A stretch of 32,000 nucleotides of DNA from Candidatus Thorarchaeota archaeon (GTDB lineage Archaea > Asgardarchaeota > Thorarchaeia > Thorarchaeales > Thorarchaeaceae). The first letter of the stretch is position 1. The number at the start of each line of letters is the position of its first letter. Under the pieces are notes generated by a model, which was not told the origin of the DNA, made no database searches, and saw only the letters and a list, made by a program, of their open reading frames with translations. Position numbers and translations under genes: made by a program. This document shows, in pieces, positions 22,146 to 29,759 of this stretch. The stretch spans positions 150,001 through 182,000 of the forward strand of contig SHMX01000003.1 in assembly GCA_008080745.1 (NCBI GenBank). Direction: 5' to 3'.

Positions 22146-23675
22146 TTGCAAACTGTCAAACCAATCGAAACCGATGTAGTCGAACTTTCAGTTTCAGCCT
22201 GGTTTTATCGGAATCGAACCATAGCAGGCTTTGACAATCCAGCCCGATCACTTTATGTATCGATCCGTGAATTAGTTGAGAATAGTCTTGACGCAAGTGA
22301 AGATGCAGGCTATCTTCCAGAAGTCAAGGTAACACTATCACGCATCTCTGAACGGTCAGATTTGGGAGATTTATTCTCAGCAGGTCCTGAAGAATTCAAA
22401 CTCAGAGTCGAGGATAACGGCGGTGGAATTCCAAGATCAAAAGTCCCCAAATTAATAGGAAAGATGCTTACAGGTACAAAATTCATGCTTAGACAAAATC
22501 GTGGAACCTTCGGTTTGGGAGGAAGTCTTGCCCTACTCTATGGACAAGTTACTACTCAAAAACCCATCAAGATATGTACAGCTATACCAGGAGAGAATCT
22601 TAGACATGAATTGATTATGCGGCTAGATATTGAACAGAATACTCCTAAAATAATTAGAGAAAATTCAATTCGAAAAGATCCTGATGATCACGGTACAATT
22701 GTTGAATTCGCACTACAGGGAGATTGGATTAGAAGCAAGACACGGATAGCAGATTACTTCACGCAAACGAGTATTATTGTTCCTTATGCGAGTATTATTT
22801 TTAGCAATCCAGATGGAGAAACTCTCACCTATAAAAGACTAATAGAAACATTACCGCGAAGACCAAAAGACATGAAGCCGCATCCAGAAGGTATCGATGT
22901 TGAGATGCTCAAACAAATGATTCGAAAGACCAAGAAAAACACTCTCAGTAAATTCTTTATGAAAGCATTTCAGAGGGTGGGGACTACAACCGCCCAAGCG
23001 TTTCTCGATTATGCGGAATTGGATCCAGATATTCCACCCAAGACCTTGAAGCGTGAAGAATTAGTAGCCCTGATGAATGCAATGGCTTCATACGATAAAT
23101 TTCTACCACCCTCTCCAAAATCACTATCACCTGCAGGAGAGGCGGTATTAGAAGCAGGTCTCAAGAGGTTAGAACCAGAGTTTGTAGCAGTGAGTACACG
23201 TTCGCCAAGTGTTTATGAAGGGCACCCATTCATTATCGAAACTGCGGTGGCATACGGAGGTGGTCTTCAACCAGGTATCAATCTGTTGCGTTTCGCAAAT
23301 AGAATTCCGCTCCTTTATGATGAGAGATCAGATGTATCAAGTAGAGTAATCAGAGACCTCCGATTGAAGAATTATGAATTGAAACAGGAAGATCCCTTAG
23401 TCTTTCTTACCCATATCTGCTCAACCAAAGTACCCTATAAGACAGTAGGGAAAGAATTCATTGGAGATGTTGATGCAGTCCGACGAGAAGTCGATCTAGG
23501 ATTCAAAGAATGCTTAAGGAGAGTATCTGAAGGAGTTCGTAAAAAGAATCGAGCAAAGAGAAAGGCAAGACGAGAAAATAAGCTGCAGACCTATTACGAA
23601 TTTCTCACTGACACACTATCTGCCGCTACTGGTCGGCAAATCAGTTCGTCAATTCTTTTTGGAGATGAGAGGTGA
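22146..23675 (+). CDS. top6B: DNA topoisomerase VI subunit B
   Basis: GFDNPARSLY...RELVENSLDA, VEDNGGGI, RGTFGLGG, DDHGT (GHKL motifs); PHPEG.D, RFANRIPLLYD, KVPYKTVGKE transducer; overlaps the next gene. Confidence 0.93.
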   Translation: MQTVKPIETDVVELSVSAWFYRNRTIAGFDNPARSLYVSIRELVENSLDASEDAGYLPEVKVTLSRISERSDLGDLFSAGPEEFKLRVEDNGGGIPRSKVPKLIGKMLTGTKFMLRQNRGTFGLGGSLALLYGQVTTQKPIKICTAIPGENLRHELIMRLDIEQNTPKIIRENSIRKDPDDHGTIVEFALQGDWIRSKTRIADYFTQTSIIVPYASIIFSNPDGETLTYKRLIETLPRRPKDMKPHPEGIDVEMLKQMIRKTKKNTLSKFFMKAFQRVGTTTAQAFLDYAELDPDIPPKTLKREELVALMNAMASYDKFLPPSPKSLSPAGEAVLEAGLKRLEPEFVAVSTRSPSVYEGHPFIIETAVAYGGGLQPGINLLRFANRIPLLYDERSDVSSRVIRDLRLKNYELKQEDPLVFLTHICSTKVPYKTVGKEFIGDVDAVRREVDLGFKECLRRVSEGVRKKNRAKRKARRENKLQTYYEFLTDTLSAATGRQISSSILFGDER

Positions 23676-24831
23676 TATCAGGATGAATGAACGAATGCAA
23701 GATATGACCAATTCGGAAGTAATCGAACTTATTGATAATGTCATTTTTACCATAGCAGATACTATTCAAGATGGTATGTTTCCCGAGATTGGTTATTATG
23801 GTTCATCAAAAAAGAATGTAGAATACATACCTGAATCAGGATATACCCCCATTGACGAAAAACCATCATTTCTTGATGGACGAAAGGTCAAGAGTGCAAA
23901 AACCATTGCAAGTCTGGTATATGGACTTACTCGATTCAAAGAGCATCTTGATCAAGGACTATCCATGAGTCTGAGAGATTTCTATTATATGCACAAGGTG
24001 AAGGAAGTTCAAAATATCCTAAAAATAGATAGTCAGAATGAAACCAATCGCTTAATCAATTTGTGTGAACGAATTCTCCGTCTTCAGGGTTCTTCGATAC
24101 CCCGTGAAGAGTTTGGAGTAGTCAGTTCTCCCAAAGGCACTTTCTATGGTGATGTCACTCTAACTGACCTATCTGGTAAAAAGCTCAGATGCGATTATGC
24201 AGGAGAGTATGGATGGTTCATATCATCAAGGCCGTTTGAGGTGAAGATTCATCAGCTCAATATCGATGCCGCAATATTTGTAGAAAAGGAAGCTATGGCC
24301 CGCAACTTGATTGAATTAGGAATTCCAGAAGAAATGAACATCGGGGTTGGTGCCTTATTTGGTCAACCAGGAAGGAATATGAGAGCATGGATAAAACGTC
24401 TTTCAGATAATGAAGTGCCCATTCTAGTGCTTGTTGATATGTCACCATGGTCATTAAGAATTTTCTCAACTATAAAGAGTAATTCTATTGAATTAGCGAA
24501 TATTCAAGGACTTGCTGCTCCAGATACGAAACTGTTAGGTCTCACTACTGATGATTTCTGGTCATCAGATGGTATTCTAAAAGATATTGAGCATACACTC
24601 GAAGATATGTCAAAGTCTGACATAAGGTGTGCAAAACAGAATCAGAATATTCCAGCAATCAATAAAGATCCTATTCTAAAGAGAGAGAATGATATGCTCC
24701 TGAGAAAGAAACGTAAAGGAGAACTTGAGGCTTTCAAAGCTATTGGTCTACCAATATCAGAGCTAAAAACCACGTACATGGAGTATATCATATCAAAAGC
24801 CCGAAAGTATGATATTAAGTTGGGACAGTAG
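23659..24831 (+). CDS. top6A: DNA topoisomerase VI subunit A / Spo11-family protein with a non-canonical TOPRIM motif
   Basis: SLRDFYY (catalytic Tyr), SQNETNRLI, FVEKEAM, LFGQP, VDMSPWS at the canonical DxDPxG position, KGELEAF. True start may be one of the downstream ATGs (23683, 23695). Confidence 0.85.
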   Translation: MEMRGDIRMNERMQDMTNSEVIELIDNVIFTIADTIQDGMFPEIGYYGSSKKNVEYIPESGYTPIDEKPSFLDGRKVKSAKTIASLVYGLTRFKEHLDQGLSMSLRDFYYMHKVKEVQNILKIDSQNETNRLINLCERILRLQGSSIPREEFGVVSSPKGTFYGDVTLTDLSGKKLRCDYAGEYGWFISSRPFEVKIHQLNIDAAIFVEKEAMARNLIELGIPEEMNIGVGALFGQPGRNMRAWIKRLSDNEVPILVLVDMSPWSLRIFSTIKSNSIELANIQGLAAPDTKLLGLTTDDFWSSDGILKDIEHTLEDMSKSDIRCAKQNQNIPAINKDPILKRENDMLLRKKRKGELEAFKAIGLPISELKTTYMEYIISKARKYDIKLGQ

Positions 24832-24892
24832 TTGCATCTTTAGAAAACTGATTTAAGACGAGAAGCTTCTTGAAGATATGAGGAGTGGTATT

Positions 24893-25570
24893 GTGTCACT
24901 TGATAAAGAGAATATGTTGGAACTGTTCGAGAATTTCAAAGCTGCCATCGTTAAACTCATGGAGGAGCGTGACAAGCTCGCCACCGAAGCAGACGAAATT
25001 CGAGGAGCAAGACGTGAAGCTGAAGAAAAGGCTTGGCAAATAGAGGAAGACCTCAAAGAGGCTAAGACCGAGCTCATAGAGAAGGAAAAGGTGATTAGAA
25101 CCACCGAGGCGGAGAAAGTTGCTGCCGAGGCAAAGATTGACGAACTCACGAAAGAGATTGAGGATCTAAAATCAGATACTTCTAAAGAGGACCAATTAGC
25201 AAAGGTTACAGCTGAACGTGACGAGCTCAAAAAAGAGATGGACGAAATCACAAGTAAATTAGAGCGAGTTTCAGAACTCTATCGTGAAACAACTGCAGAA
25301 AAAGAGAAACTTGCAGAGAAGGTAGATGTGAGTGATTTGCTTGGAATCTATATCACCTTGATTGAAACGGTATTTGGTGGAAAACCACATGCAAGAGTGC
25401 TTTATACTTTACATAACACTCAGACAGCGATTCCAAGAAAGAACCTAGAGAAGAGTACAGGCATCATGCCAACAGCTATATTGAAGGCAATTCATGACCT
25501 CCGTAACGCGGGCCTTGTCGATTACGATGAGGAAAGTCAAGAGGTAAAGCTCCTAAAAGATATCCTTTAG
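24893..25570 (+). CDS. Long coiled-coil protein with C-terminal winged-helix domain
   Basis: About 135 aa of E/K-rich heptads, then VFGGKPHARVLYTLH...RKNLEKSTG...ILKAIHDLRNAGLVDYD (wHTH pattern). GTG at 24893 follows GAGGAG (alternative ATG at 24878). Confidence 0.75.
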   Translation: MSLDKENMLELFENFKAAIVKLMEERDKLATEADEIRGARREAEEKAWQIEEDLKEAKTELIEKEKVIRTTEAEKVAAEAKIDELTKEIEDLKSDTSKEDQLAKVTAERDELKKEMDEITSKLERVSELYRETTAEKEKLAEKVDVSDLLGIYITLIETVFGGKPHARVLYTLHNTQTAIPRKNLEKSTGIMPTAILKAIHDLRNAGLVDYDEESQEVKLLKDIL

Positions 25571-25617: not shown

Positions 25618-26619
25618 TTGCCAAAGAAAGTAAAATATTCAGCAGCTCTCAGAAAATACTTGAAGAGATACAATCTGTTTAGAAAAGTAGATAGTATTGT
25701 ATCTATATTGGGCGATGATGCTCAACAAGTCTTTGATTGGGCACAGGAAGAAGCTCAGAGACGGATTGATGAACAAAAAGAAAAGAAATCAAACAAAGGC
25801 CGTTTGATATTTCGACTAGTGGGACGAGAAGCTGCAATTAGACTAGTCCAAGAAAATCACGCAAGAGGTAGGTTGACCACTAAAAGCGAGGTTAAAAAGA
25901 AAACTGGACAGAAGATGGAGATGCCACTTCTCTATCAACAGGCTGGAGTACGTCATCCACAGGAAGCCAGAAATCTAAGACACAACCTGTTTCATAAAGC
26001 ATTTCTTGCTCTGGCACACCACCTTTTTGGTGACATTGAAACACGAATTCCACAAACTGGAGAAGGACTAACACCTGATTTGGTAATTACTCACAAAGAT
26101 CCTGATTGGGAGATTTCAGTTGAGTATAAAGGATACCGAGCTCTAACCCTTCTGAGCGAGTCAGAAATATTGAAAGGGATACGTTATCAGGCTGCTTATG
26201 GAACCTCTTGGCTTGTAACTACCACTCAGAAGACAGTTAGAGACCTCTATAATGAAACATTAACCGTGAAGGAGTTGGTTCGAAATGGTATCCCTCGATT
26301 GAAAACCATTAGTCGACGACGTGCTTATACTGAGGAACAGAAGGAAAATCGAGGAATCTCGATGAAGGGTATCAAACACCTGGAGAAAAATAAGGATTTA
26401 GGCCTGAAATGCAAGTTAATTTCAGCTCAAGATTTACTCAAGTCATGCCATGAAGGTCAACCACTCAGAGGACTAGCTATTACCACTGGTATGGAATTTA
26501 TTGAGATGTTGAAAGAAGCAGGTTTGCATGAGCACGCAGAGAATGTTTTACAGGTAATGAAAGTACCAACCTATGCATTACATAGCGATAGTGTCACTTC
26601 AGTTCGCTTGATTGGTTGA
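25618..26619 (+). CDS. PD-(D/E)xK nuclease-fold protein with a basic N-terminal helical/HTH region
   Basis: LTPDLVI...ISVEYKG (PD...ExK); N-terminal RGRLTTKSEVKKKTG...LYQQAGV resembles HTH modules seen on archaeal endonucleases. Confidence 0.6.
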   Translation: MPKKVKYSAALRKYLKRYNLFRKVDSIVSILGDDAQQVFDWAQEEAQRRIDEQKEKKSNKGRLIFRLVGREAAIRLVQENHARGRLTTKSEVKKKTGQKMEMPLLYQQAGVRHPQEARNLRHNLFHKAFLALAHHLFGDIETRIPQTGEGLTPDLVITHKDPDWEISVEYKGYRALTLLSESEILKGIRYQAAYGTSWLVTTTQKTVRDLYNETLTVKELVRNGIPRLKTISRRRAYTEEQKENRGISMKGIKHLEKNKDLGLKCKLISAQDLLKSCHEGQPLRGLAITTGMEFIEMLKEAGLHEHAENVLQVMKVPTYALHSDSVTSVRLIG

Positions 26620-26718: not shown

Positions 26719-27111
26719 TTGACAAGTTCAGCCTCTATCAATATTCCCGAACTACTGAAAGAACTATTGCGAGATTTGTCAAATAACTCGCCGATACTGG
26801 GAGCTGCAATTCTATCTCAAGAAGGTCTCCCTCTGGAGAGTCATTTCCATCGAGGATTAGAGGAGGCCACTATTGCTGCAATGGTAGCAGGCATATATTC
26901 CACCGGGGAACAAACGGTCAGAGAACTAAGACAGGGTAACTTGAGGAATATCATCATAGAAGGAGATATGGGTACTACAATTGTTTTATCGATCCCAGGC
27001 GGATATCTTCTCTGTGTTACAGCACCAGAAAACGCCAAACTTGGTCTAATTTTTAATGATGCAAAACGAGTAGCTAGAGAAGCCTCCAGACTAATCCAAC
27101 GATATGAGTGA
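26719..27111 (+). CDS. Roadblock/LC7 (MglB-like) protein
   Basis: ILGAAILSQEGLPL...EATIAAMVAGIYSTGEQTVREL..G.L..IIIEGDMG...LGLIF..AK; TTG at 26719 follows GAAGGTG. Confidence 0.92.
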   Translation: MTSSASINIPELLKELLRDLSNNSPILGAAILSQEGLPLESHFHRGLEEATIAAMVAGIYSTGEQTVRELRQGNLRNIIIEGDMGTTIVLSIPGGYLLCVTAPENAKLGLIFNDAKRVAREASRLIQRYE

Positions 27112-27943
27112 GAAAATGAGTGCAAACGAAAGGTATCCCTATATTCATCATCCTTGTTGGTCCCAAATAGATAGTTGGGAAAGAATTCATCTTCCAGTAG
27201 CAAGAAAATGTAATGTCAAATGTATATATTGTGATCATCTACTTGAGAGTGCGTGTCATTCTGGTTCTAGACCAGGTCGTAGTAGACAGGTGATGAAGCC
27301 TGAGGAAGCCATCGAAAGGTGTCTTTCTGAGTTGAGTAAACGAAAAAATCTAAGAATTGTAGCAGTTTCTGGACCCGGGGAGCCGCTAGCAAATAAAGAA
27401 ACATTTGAAACTCTTTGGCGAATTCGACAAATGAAATCAGATATCAAAATCTGCCTAAGTACGAATGGTACGCTTCTTAGCTCAAATATACAAAAACTGG
27501 AAGAACTGAATATTGAAACAATCTCTGTTACTGTGTCTTCTACAAATTTAGAAACAATAGAACAGTTGTATCAGTGGATGCTTATCGATGAGAAACGGGT
27601 AAGTGGTGCCGGAATGGCCTCGATTATTCTTAGATCTCAAATAAAGGGAATTGCAGAGGCGAGCAATGTTGGAATTTTTATCAAGGTAAACACGGTTCTG
27701 ATTCCTGGGCTAAATGATAGAGATATAATAGATCTAGCAAAGCAAATACATAACGCAGGTGCGAAAATTCACAATATCGTACCATTGATACCCCATTCAG
27801 ATGCCAAGAAGTATCGAGTACCCACTCAAAAAGAGATTGAAGATGCAAGAGCAAAATCAAATTCATTCATACCGCAATTTACACATTGCAGGCAATGCAG
27901 AAGTGATGTAGTGGGAATTCCCGGTCAAGATACAATCCTCTAA
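27104..27943 (+). CDS. Stand-alone NifB-like radical SAM protein with no NifX domain
   Basis: HPC, RIHLPVA, CNVKCIYC, SRPG, VSGPGEPLAN, ICLSTNG, KVNTVLIPG.ND, HCRQCRSDVVG; overlaps the roadblock stop by 8 nt. Confidence 0.85.
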   Translation: MSEKMSANERYPYIHHPCWSQIDSWERIHLPVARKCNVKCIYCDHLLESACHSGSRPGRSRQVMKPEEAIERCLSELSKRKNLRIVAVSGPGEPLANKETFETLWRIRQMKSDIKICLSTNGTLLSSNIQKLEELNIETISVTVSSTNLETIEQLYQWMLIDEKRVSGAGMASIILRSQIKGIAEASNVGIFIKVNTVLIPGLNDRDIIDLAKQIHNAGAKIHNIVPLIPHSDAKKYRVPTQKEIEDARAKSNSFIPQFTHCRQCRSDVVGIPGQDTIL

Positions 27944-28779
27944 GCTAAGGATTTAATGCCAGCTAAACCAAGGCAACCCGAATCTACTAAGAGATTAATA
28001 AGAAACCATATGGCACTGGAATCATATGGGAGTCCTTGCATTATGTCTTGTATTCTTTGTGAGCCATCGGAACTTCGAATCAAATCTTCTACAGGTTGAC
28101 CATACTGTGCTTTTAACCTCTCAAGTACCATAGGTTCGCATTCCAACCGAATTAAAATATCGTTATCAGTGAGAGGCTTCTTGAAATGTATCCATTTGAA
28201 TTTTGCAAGAGCAGAAGCAACAGCCATCACCTCTCCATCAGTCAAGGCGATTCTATTGACAATCTCACCCAAAGAGCGTTTACCATTGATAAAATCCTCG
28301 AACTCCTCCATTTTCTGGTCAACATAACCAACACGGTAGGGAATCTGTTCACCTCTTCTTTTTAGAGGAACAAGTTCAAGGTCTATCTTATGATAAGGAA
28401 AGTGAACTAGAACGGAAAAACAAAACTCCCGAAATAAACGGACATCACCATCAAAATCAGCTAAAGCTTCTTGATATCCAGTTTCAAAATCTGATAGAAT
28501 TTGACGCAGATGTTTCCTATAGGGAGCTTCGTCAGGAACTGGATCGACAACCAGTAATATCAGAACTTTTTTACCAACCTCAATTAGAATATCATAAGCA
28601 GCTTTTCTAATTGTACGAATTGGTGTCTTTGCAAAGATAATAACAGCAGTTACAAATCCAGCTATCAAGTCAGGATCAACGGTCATGGTGGCATATGGCA
28701 GGCTGAGGATGGACTCACCACCTTCCAGTCGAATGATAGAAATATATCTGATTCTGGATACATCAACTGCCAAATGCAC
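27940..28779 (-). CDS. Longin-like domain plus two winged-helix-like repeats (NPRL2-like), paralogue B
   Basis: RYISIIRLEGGESI...VDPDLIAGFVTAVIIF...ILLVVD...YRKHLRQILSDFE (longin pattern); FINGKRSLGEI and SDGSQRIQDI repeats; AAGGAG RBS. Confidence 0.7.
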   Translation of the reverse strand: MHLAVDVSRIRYISIIRLEGGESILSLPYATMTVDPDLIAGFVTAVIIFAKTPIRTIRKAAYDILIEVGKKVLILLVVDPVPDEAPYRKHLRQILSDFETGYQEALADFDGDVRLFREFCFSVLVHFPYHKIDLELVPLKRRGEQIPYRVGYVDQKMEEFEDFINGKRSLGEIVNRIALTDGEVMAVASALAKFKWIHFKKPLTDNDILIRLECEPMVLERLKAQYGQPVEDLIRSSDGSQRIQDIMQGLPYDSSAIWFLINLLVDSGCLGLAGIKSLA

Positions 28780-28895
28780 ACATACTCCTTTTTGATTTGG
28801 AAAGAGAACTCCTATAGTATCTATTTGGAAGGCTGCTTATAATAATTCCATAAAAGAATATCCTACCCGTATATTCTCCTCGCATCGCCAACATA

Positions 28896-29759
28896 CTATT
28901 TCTTTGCCCCCATTCCTGAAGCATATCGAAGCACTCCATAGTCAATGAGTGTCTTCGCAACCACCATTACAACTTCCAAACTATATGGAAGCATCTCACT
29001 AACTTCACCCAGATTTCTAGTTCCGTCACATAATTCAACAAGATTTGATATCTGTTCACCATAAACAGCTATTAGAAAATCAGGAGCATTTGAGATCTTT
29101 ACAAGCTTGACAGAATCCGTAATTTTGGGAGAGAGTGTAACCCAATTATATCGATCTAATAGGGAAAATATAGCCATTACCTCTCTCTCAGACATTCCAG
29201 ATGCTTCAATGATTTCATTTATGGATCGCTTTCCATTGATGAAGTTTAATATCTTGTGAATCTTCTCATCGGTCTTTCCGACACTCCAGGGAATCTCAGA
29301 ACGATGATCTGGTGCCGCATCAGATTTGCTTACGAGTTTTGGTACTAAAGATGCCTCCAAGATACGATATGGAAAGGTTTCAAGAATCCCTAAGGCGAAC
29401 TCTCGGAAGGGTCTAATATCACCTTTCCAAGATTCTAAAAGTGATTCATACTCTTTTTCAAAACGATGTGTTAGTTTCTTTAGTGCCTTACGATACACCT
29501 CATCATTTTCTACACGGTCTATGATAAGCAGACTGACTACCTGTTCACCCTCCTCAATGATTACTACATAACCCTCTTTTGTAAAAGTTTTAAGTTGTCG
29601 ATTTTCAAAGATGATAATGGCGAGAACAAAGGATGCAACTAAATCGGGGTCTACACTCATCTCTCGATAAGGTATACCAATGATAGGTTCACCACCCTCT
29701 TTCCTGACGATTGAGATATAGCGTACCTTTTCTTCGTCTAGGTCTTCACGTATCATCAC
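28896..29759 (-). CDS. Longin-like domain plus two winged-helix-like repeats (NPRL2-like), paralogue A
   Basis: RYISIVRKEGGEPI...VDPDLVASFVLAIIIF...SLLIID...YRKALKKLTHRFE; FINGKRSINEI and CDGTRNLGEV repeats; collinear with 27940..28779. Confidence 0.72.
   Translation of the reverse strand: MMIREDLDEEKVRYISIVRKEGGEPIIGIPYREMSVDPDLVASFVLAIIIFENRQLKTFTKEGYVVIIEEGEQVVSLLIIDRVENDEVYRKALKKLTHRFEKEYESLLESWKGDIRPFREFALGILETFPYRILEASLVPKLVSKSDAAPDHRSEIPWSVGKTDEKIHKILNFINGKRSINEIIEASGMSEREVMAIFSLLDRYNWVTLSPKITDSVKLVKISNAPDFLIAVYGEQISNLVELCDGTRNLGEVSEMLPYSLEVVMVVAKTLIDYGVLRYASGMGAKK

Follow-up and report, generated by a model that had tools for sequence, protein, structure and literature searches.

Gene content of the roadblock–nifB locus

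The window (the whole stretch of DNA analysed, 32,000 nucleotides from a Thorarchaeota genome estimated to be 98% complete) encoded a single-domain radical SAM enzyme of the NifB family (hereafter nifB) behind a roadblock/LC7 gene. NifB makes the [8Fe-9S-C] core of the nitrogenase cofactor, with SAH and 5'-dA released in the process. The features of the locus were as follows.

25618–26619, + strand: 333-aa protein of the Thorarchaeota order, upstream in the same conserved block, with a weak PD-(D/E)xK nuclease-like lead
26719–27111, + strand: roadblock/LC7 gene, 130 aa, upstream neighbour of nifB (PF03259, E 3.5e-13)
27116–27943, + strand: NifB-family single-domain radical SAM enzyme (TIGR01290, PDB matches, Foldseek; start from 55 genomes)
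27155–27190, + strand: C18 (HPC; bridges the K-cluster) to H29 (ligand of K1), both at 100% in 119 sequences and equivalent to C18/H31 of 7BI7
27209–27232, + strand: CxxxCxxC radical SAM cluster motif, C36/C40/C43 (alignment)
27254–27277, + strand: altered plug loop, C51 90%, H52 99%, Glu 1% (119-sequence alignment)
27452–27454, + strand: C117, K1 ligand, 100% conserved
27683–27691, + strand: K194 and N196, equivalent to K192/N194 of 7BI7, 100% conserved
27887–27898, + strand: C262/C265, K2 ligands (Cys pair 100%), then the family-specific RSDV
27940–29759, − strand: pair of Asgard paralogues (279 and 287 aa) whose genes converge on nifB (sequence comparison)

When called from its most upstream ATG, the nifB open reading frame spans 27104–27943 (+ strand, 279 aa), and this choice of start creates the ATGAGTGA overlap with the roadblock frame, which ends at 27111. 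A second in-frame ATG at 27116, 4 nt past the roadblock stop, is the start position used by the family relatives (55-genome comparison) and gives 275 aa, as in the database record of this protein. Residue numbers given here follow the 279-aa frame (start 27104). The initial annotation had described translational coupling through ATGAGTGA and had proposed that conservation of the overlap be checked; the overlap proved to be a matter of start-codon choice, as its 8-nt form occurred in 1 of 55 family genomes (the source genome only) and any overlapping nifB ATG in only 8 of 55. Usually, nifB started at an ATG 3–15 nt after the roadblock stop, and the distance from this stop to the HPC motif was 17–76 nt, mostly 35–43 nt, in the 55 genomes. 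Such conserved tight spacing suggests that both genes are likely carried on one transcript. A promoter and terminator scan, run with a bacterial model on this archaeal host, gave counts at chance level.

Family assignment and predicted fold

Profile, structure and fold comparisons all bore out the earlier description of a NifB-like radical SAM enzyme. TIGR01290 was the best family model (E 2.7e-66, with MoaA next at 2e-22); the score of 224 bits lies below the curated cut-off of 343.65 of this two-domain model, which includes a NifX domain absent from single-domain archaeal NifBs. Among solved proteins, the best sequence matches were PDB 6Y1X (E 4e-65) and 7BI7 (E 2e-57), and archaeal NifBs (6Y1X, 7BI7, 7JMA, 7JMB) were the best solved structures by both sequence and fold. 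The AlphaFold model (pLDDT 82.7, with the plug loop and both termini at low confidence) retrieved only NifBs as its top five Foldseek matches (TM 0.74–0.81), at E 7e-28 for NifB versus 1e-10 for the best other radical SAM enzyme. Close database homologues carried Thorarchaeota names. On sequence and predicted fold, the gene is real and is a member of the NifB family, but the term NifB paralogue, as initially used, is not apt since the source genome has no other NifB.

Cluster ligands and fingerprint residues

Residues were compared between 119 Thorarchaeota-family sequences and 124 representatives of other NifBs. The cysteines and histidine first noted (C18, H29, C36/C40/C43, C51, C117, C262 and C265) were all found in place. 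All five K-cluster ligands (C18, H31, C115, C260 and C263 of 7BI7) were kept in 119 of 119 family sequences, as was the HPC motif, and identity to the query fell to 41–54% across the family while the ligands and K194/N196 stayed invariant. The equivalent residues K192/N194 hold the bridging sulfide proposed as acceptor of the SAM methyl (PMC8179604). The ribose-binding Thr (T141 of 7BI7) corresponded to T143 here, and was Ser or Thr across the family.

The statement that all cluster ligands are kept was nevertheless incorrect, because the Glu of the ExRP motif is itself a K1 ligand (E65 in 6Y1X, E53 in 7BI7; PMC8179604), and this plug-loop Glu was absent in 118 of 119 family sequences (present in 1%, versus 86% of other NifBs). 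At the position of E53 in 7BI7, directly after the loop Cys, 99% of the family harbored a His (H52). Replacing the loop Glu or Cys in a characterised NifB abolished or greatly reduced the formation of NifB-co, and loop mutants still cleaved SAM while making little NifB-co (PMC8179604).

Readings of the altered motifs as GSRP, SGPG, SVTVS and CRQCRSDVVG were also correct. ExRP, here GSRP, was found in 0 of 119 family sequences and in 78% of the other representatives. AGPG read SGPG (SGPG 94% and AGPG 6% in the family, AGPG 94% in others), TxTxN read SVTVS with its middle Thr kept (TxTxN in 2% of the family, 86% of others), and Cx2CRxDAxG read CRQCRSDVVG with RxD kept and Ala replaced by Val (2% versus 89%). 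N145 was lost in 91% of the family and kept in 97% of other NifBs, while RSDV was present in 96% of the family and in 0% of the 124 other representatives. New near-invariant residues were W25, H52, E157, W158, M171 and a fixed C-terminal PGxD. The six-motif NifB filter (PMC5715403) was passed by 0 of 119 family sequences versus 69% of other representatives, which places the family outside strict NifB membership, although the enzyme may still work like NifB. A His seven residues before the K1 His, considered as a K2 ligand, was dropped as a diagnostic residue: the family is without it, but so, at that position, are about two thirds of the other representatives.

Changes in the plug loop were also found in NifBs encoded together with known client families. 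NifB of one McrC-bearing genome (G163) is without the loop Cys by sequence comparison, that of another (G160, 88% complete, one NifB found) is without both of these residues, and operons with NifH/NifDK-like genes (L070, L075, L216) also encode NifBs devoid of the Glu. These sequences indicate a plastic plug loop in client-bearing NifBs.

Distribution, phylogeny and selection

The nifB variant was found in 72 of 86 family genomes, in all 16 genera and in 23 of 23 high-quality genomes, essentially as a single copy, and is a core gene of the Thorarchaeota family. Five genomes at least 85% complete without nifB were also without its upstream gene, which points to unassembled regions. Frameshifted copies in two genomes (G023 and G084) were not taken as a sign of decay; in G023 a neighbouring gene is frameshifted too, which makes assembly error likely there. 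Outside the family, NifB was found in 8 of about 210 Asgard genomes.

In the phylogeny proposed as a check, family NifBs formed one clade (99/98) within the sampled NifB diversity, apart from the McrC-linked NifBs of Helarchaeota, ANME and Methanocella, which formed a separate clade (100/98) excluding the Thorarchaeota one. The sister of the Thorarchaeota clade was weakly placed (84/91) on a long branch in a tree built with neither outgroup nor AU test, so no claim is made on donor or on gain versus loss.

The dN/dS of nifB was about 0.18, versus 0.05–0.09 for three neighbours (12–18 unsaturated, non-independent pairs). Among the four genes, nifB had the lowest identity in 98% of 703 pairs, and it evolved about twice as fast as its neighbours. 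These ratios indicate that nifB is under purifying selection, less tight than that on the neighbours.

Search for client proteins

No nifHDK or nifENX genes had been reported in the window, and none were found in the window or in the source genome. The nitrogenase fold (PF00148), NifH and McrC were each found in 0 of 86 family genomes while positive controls were detected, and Mmp7 and McrA, searched for in the source genome only, were not found there. In the source genome, neither profile searches at E up to 1 nor phmmer --max runs (queries: Asgard McrC, Nfl and CfbD) gave any credible match. The suggestion of a non-nitrogenase target was thus supported family-wide, with the second known client family, McrC, absent too. 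The McrC/Mmp7 explanation of methanogen orphan NifBs fails for Thorarchaeota.

Several weak candidates were rejected. A phmmer match to McrC (C9:26725-27528, E 0.009) fell on a protein that looks secreted and does not share the ligand pattern, a weak PF00148 match (E 0.23) was discarded, and two weak NifH matches were MinD/ParA-type ATPases. Next to the orphan nifB of two other Asgard genomes (G290/G291) lies the gene for a 247-aa protein with a homologue in the source genome; this protein was dismissed as a client candidate because its homologues occur in 97 of 106 genomes of a NifB-less family.

Comparison with known NifB systems

The Thorarchaeota enzyme resembled the NifBs of Methanothrix thermoacetophila (6Y1X) and Methanothermobacter thermautotrophicus (7BI7, 7JMA, 7JMB) in its single radical SAM domain (37–40% identity, TM about 0.8), and shared with them the radical SAM motif, the C18, His and Cys ligands of K1, the two Cys ligands of K2, the loop Cys, the K/N pair and the ribose Thr. 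It differed from them by the absent loop Glu and the His adjoining the loop Cys, and by SGPG, SxTxS/SxSxS and RSDV. M. thermoacetophila is likewise without nitrogenase; unlike the hosts of methanogen orphan NifBs, however, the source genome is without MCR, McrC and Mmp7.

Orphan NifB as such is already known from methanogens: all of them carry an essential NifB, and the enzyme of a species without nitrogenase produces the L-cluster (bioRxiv 10.1101/2023.10.20.563283). L-type clusters were later found in McrC and Mmp7, a non-nitrogenase client, in work that also recorded NifB in Asgard archaea (PMC12176620). The Thorarchaeota case resembles the NifBs that supply this MCR activation complex, Helarchaeota NifB among them, in having NifB without nitrogenase in Asgard archaea, but the Helarchaeota/ANME/Methanocella NifBs keep ExRP, co-occur with McrC and form the separate clade described above. 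Group IV nitrogenase-like (Nfl) systems are other users of the NifB product, and their NflB, MarB and NfaB also represent a non-nitrogenase use of NifB chemistry (PMC13474568). Some uncharacterised NflBs likewise are without the loop Glu or carry SGPG; NflB, MarB and NfaB nonetheless adjoin NifH- and NifDK-like genes, whereas none were found in the 86 Thorarchaeota genomes.

Proposed function of the Thorarchaeota NifB

The reading we put forward, to which we give about an even chance, is a lineage-specific NifB that would still fuse two [4Fe-4S] clusters and perform the SAM chemistry for a further client, neither nitrogenase-fold nor McrC/Mmp7. Following residue conservation and the cited work on NifB, the radical SAM cluster would be bound by C36/C40/C43, and two substrate [4Fe-4S] clusters would be loaded on C18, H29 and C117 and on C262 and C265, then fused into an 8Fe K-cluster. 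One SAM would donate its methyl to the bridging sulfide that K194/N196 hold in place, the radical from a second SAM would drive this methyl towards carbide, and the outcome would be an 8Fe cluster of the L or an L-like type, with H52 probably taking the place of Glu as plug-loop ligand. The product would be passed to the presumed client, and the roadblock gene would be a co-transcribed neighbour in an older block that nifB had entered (or from which nifB was lost in the sister family).

NifB-like function is favoured by the five K-cluster ligands and K194/N196, invariant in 119 sequences at 41–54% identity, and by the kept ribose Thr, the NifB fold, the core-gene status and the dN/dS of about 0.18. 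Loss of the loop Glu is compatible with function given the plasticity of the loop in client-bearing NifBs, and a client is favoured by precedent, since a nitrogenase-free methanogen NifB makes the L-cluster and a non-nitrogenase client was later found. Against NifB-like function stand the fruitless client search, the result of the six-motif filter, the loss of the loop Glu and of N145, and the faster evolution.

These same observations could also fit an enzyme in which the NifB scaffold and ligands were kept while the chemistry changed, for example cluster fusion without carbide, or radical or methyl chemistry directed at a different substrate, the auxiliary cluster then serving as a permanent cofactor. 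We consider such repurposing rather unlikely, although it would account for the coordinated family-wide change at four fingerprints (loop Glu lost, SGPG, N145 lost, RSDV) and the new near-invariant residues, and is in line with the faster evolution relative to the neighbours, with the family genomes holding no known L-cluster client and with the behaviour of the loop mutants of real NifB; on the other hand, the residues for K-cluster binding and for the methyl-accepting sulfide are all invariant, several substitutions are conservative (A to S, T to S), and no gene linked to nifB suggests a substrate. Improbable in our judgement is a hidden client of known fold (nitrogenase-like, McrC-like or NifX-like) that has diverged beyond the reach of the searches, or an enzyme left over from a lost Nfl operon and in slow decay. 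The nearest relative of the family (P0327, weakly supported and on a long branch) does sit in a NifDK-like/NifH operon, constraint on nifB is relaxed, and five NifX-like PF02579 domains are encoded elsewhere in the source genome. Yet the sensitive searches described above found nothing credible, the NifX-like genes lie in unrelated contexts (e.g., a MinD-type ATPase operon), and decay is unlikely because nifB is kept in all 16 genera with invariant ligands and a dN/dS well below 1.

A partnership with the roadblock protein, in which the enzyme would report Fe-S/SAM status to GTPase signalling, had been suggested by the initial annotation and appears very improbable. The roadblock gene was directly upstream of nifB on the same strand, at tight spacing, in 55 of 55 family genomes. 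However, this adjacency was no better than background: of the gene pairs in random regions of two distant family genomes, 44 of 47 tight same-strand pairs and 164 of 200 adjacent pairs had the same order in the source genome, and a block of about 15 kb around the two genes was syntenic in the family. A sister-family genome (G292, 96% complete) carried the same roadblock gene between the same neighbours, with no nifB there or elsewhere; one of its contigs held the coiled-coil gene, the 333-aa gene, the roadblock gene facing a convergent gene, DUF2797 and an AmmeMemoRadiSam gene. No match to this roadblock was found beside eight other Asgard NifBs examined, the source genome held 15 roadblock-domain matches, and the overlap was not conserved. 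A complex prediction for the NifB-like and roadblock proteins scored 0.00 and was counted neither for nor against. The gene order indicates that the roadblock gene belongs to an older block, with nifB having either entered downstream of it or disappeared from one sister genome, and most likely it is only a neighbour of nifB.

Implications of an orphan NifB without known clients

The known users of the NifB product are limited to nitrogenase-fold enzymes and to the methanogen McrC/Mmp7 activation complex, recognised as such since 2025, and the latter client was foreshadowed by the same pattern of a conserved NifB without nitrogenase. An Asgard family with NifB and neither client predicts a third client class or a new NifB chemistry. 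A tentative extension of the NifB-like reading, plausible though short of an even chance, is that the 8Fe cluster made by Thorarchaeota contains carbide and serves a third class of proteins, with no relation to either the nitrogenase superfamily or the MCR activation complex; if true, this class would be found in an Asgard lineage with neither nitrogen fixation nor MCR. In the literature searched, no orphan NifB was described in a lineage with neither client family and no paper named Thorarchaeota with NifB, but unnamed Asgard sequences figure in the NifB tree of PMC12176620, so an earlier mention is possible.

The value of the locus lies in the family-wide absence of known clients for a core, fingerprint-altered NifB with its five K-cluster ligands kept, and not in its roadblock neighbour. 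As a natural variant with the plug-loop Glu replaced, the enzyme also bears on the proposed gating mechanism. Complementation assays exist (an A. vinelandii nifB mutant and the essential nifB of M. acetivorans) and need no culture of the host.

Neighbouring genes and related Asgard loci

The two paralogous proteins converging on nifB are Asgard-specific and 36–38% identical to each other. The 287-aa paralogue had weak winged-helix matches, including HTH_NPRL3 (E 0.003), and the N-termini of both appeared longin-like by eye. G292 has a single copy that directly faces the roadblock gene, which makes these proteins likelier roadblock partners than NifB. The 333-aa protein upstream is order-restricted and 54–66% conserved across genera; its PD-(D/E)xK/Mrr nuclease-like lead (Atlas 0.88) is below the reliable range. 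The same-strand run is headed by topoisomerase VI B and A genes and a coiled-coil/HTH gene (22146–25570, + strand); top6BA is missing from the block in five family genomes (G008, G013, G014, G021, G023) and in G292.

Two of the five NifX-like (PF02579) genes of the source genome are followed by two MinD-type ATPases with ferredoxin inserts (G000 C2:492225-494735), and the three further domains lie elsewhere, one fused to a cation-efflux-like protein, none of the contexts being linked to nifB. A second Asgard family (G290/G291, both 100% complete) harbored an orphan Glu-less NifB (L072:6641-7441, L073:7005-7805) with no PF00148 or McrC match. Asgard operons in G092 (L070:4140-7060) and G137 (L075:941-3975) pair a lone NifD-like gene with a NifH-like gene and a NifB devoid of the loop Glu, and a further locus (L211:2937-10824) encoded two NifDK-like genes, NifH, a very divergent NifB, three more radical SAM genes and a methyltransferase.
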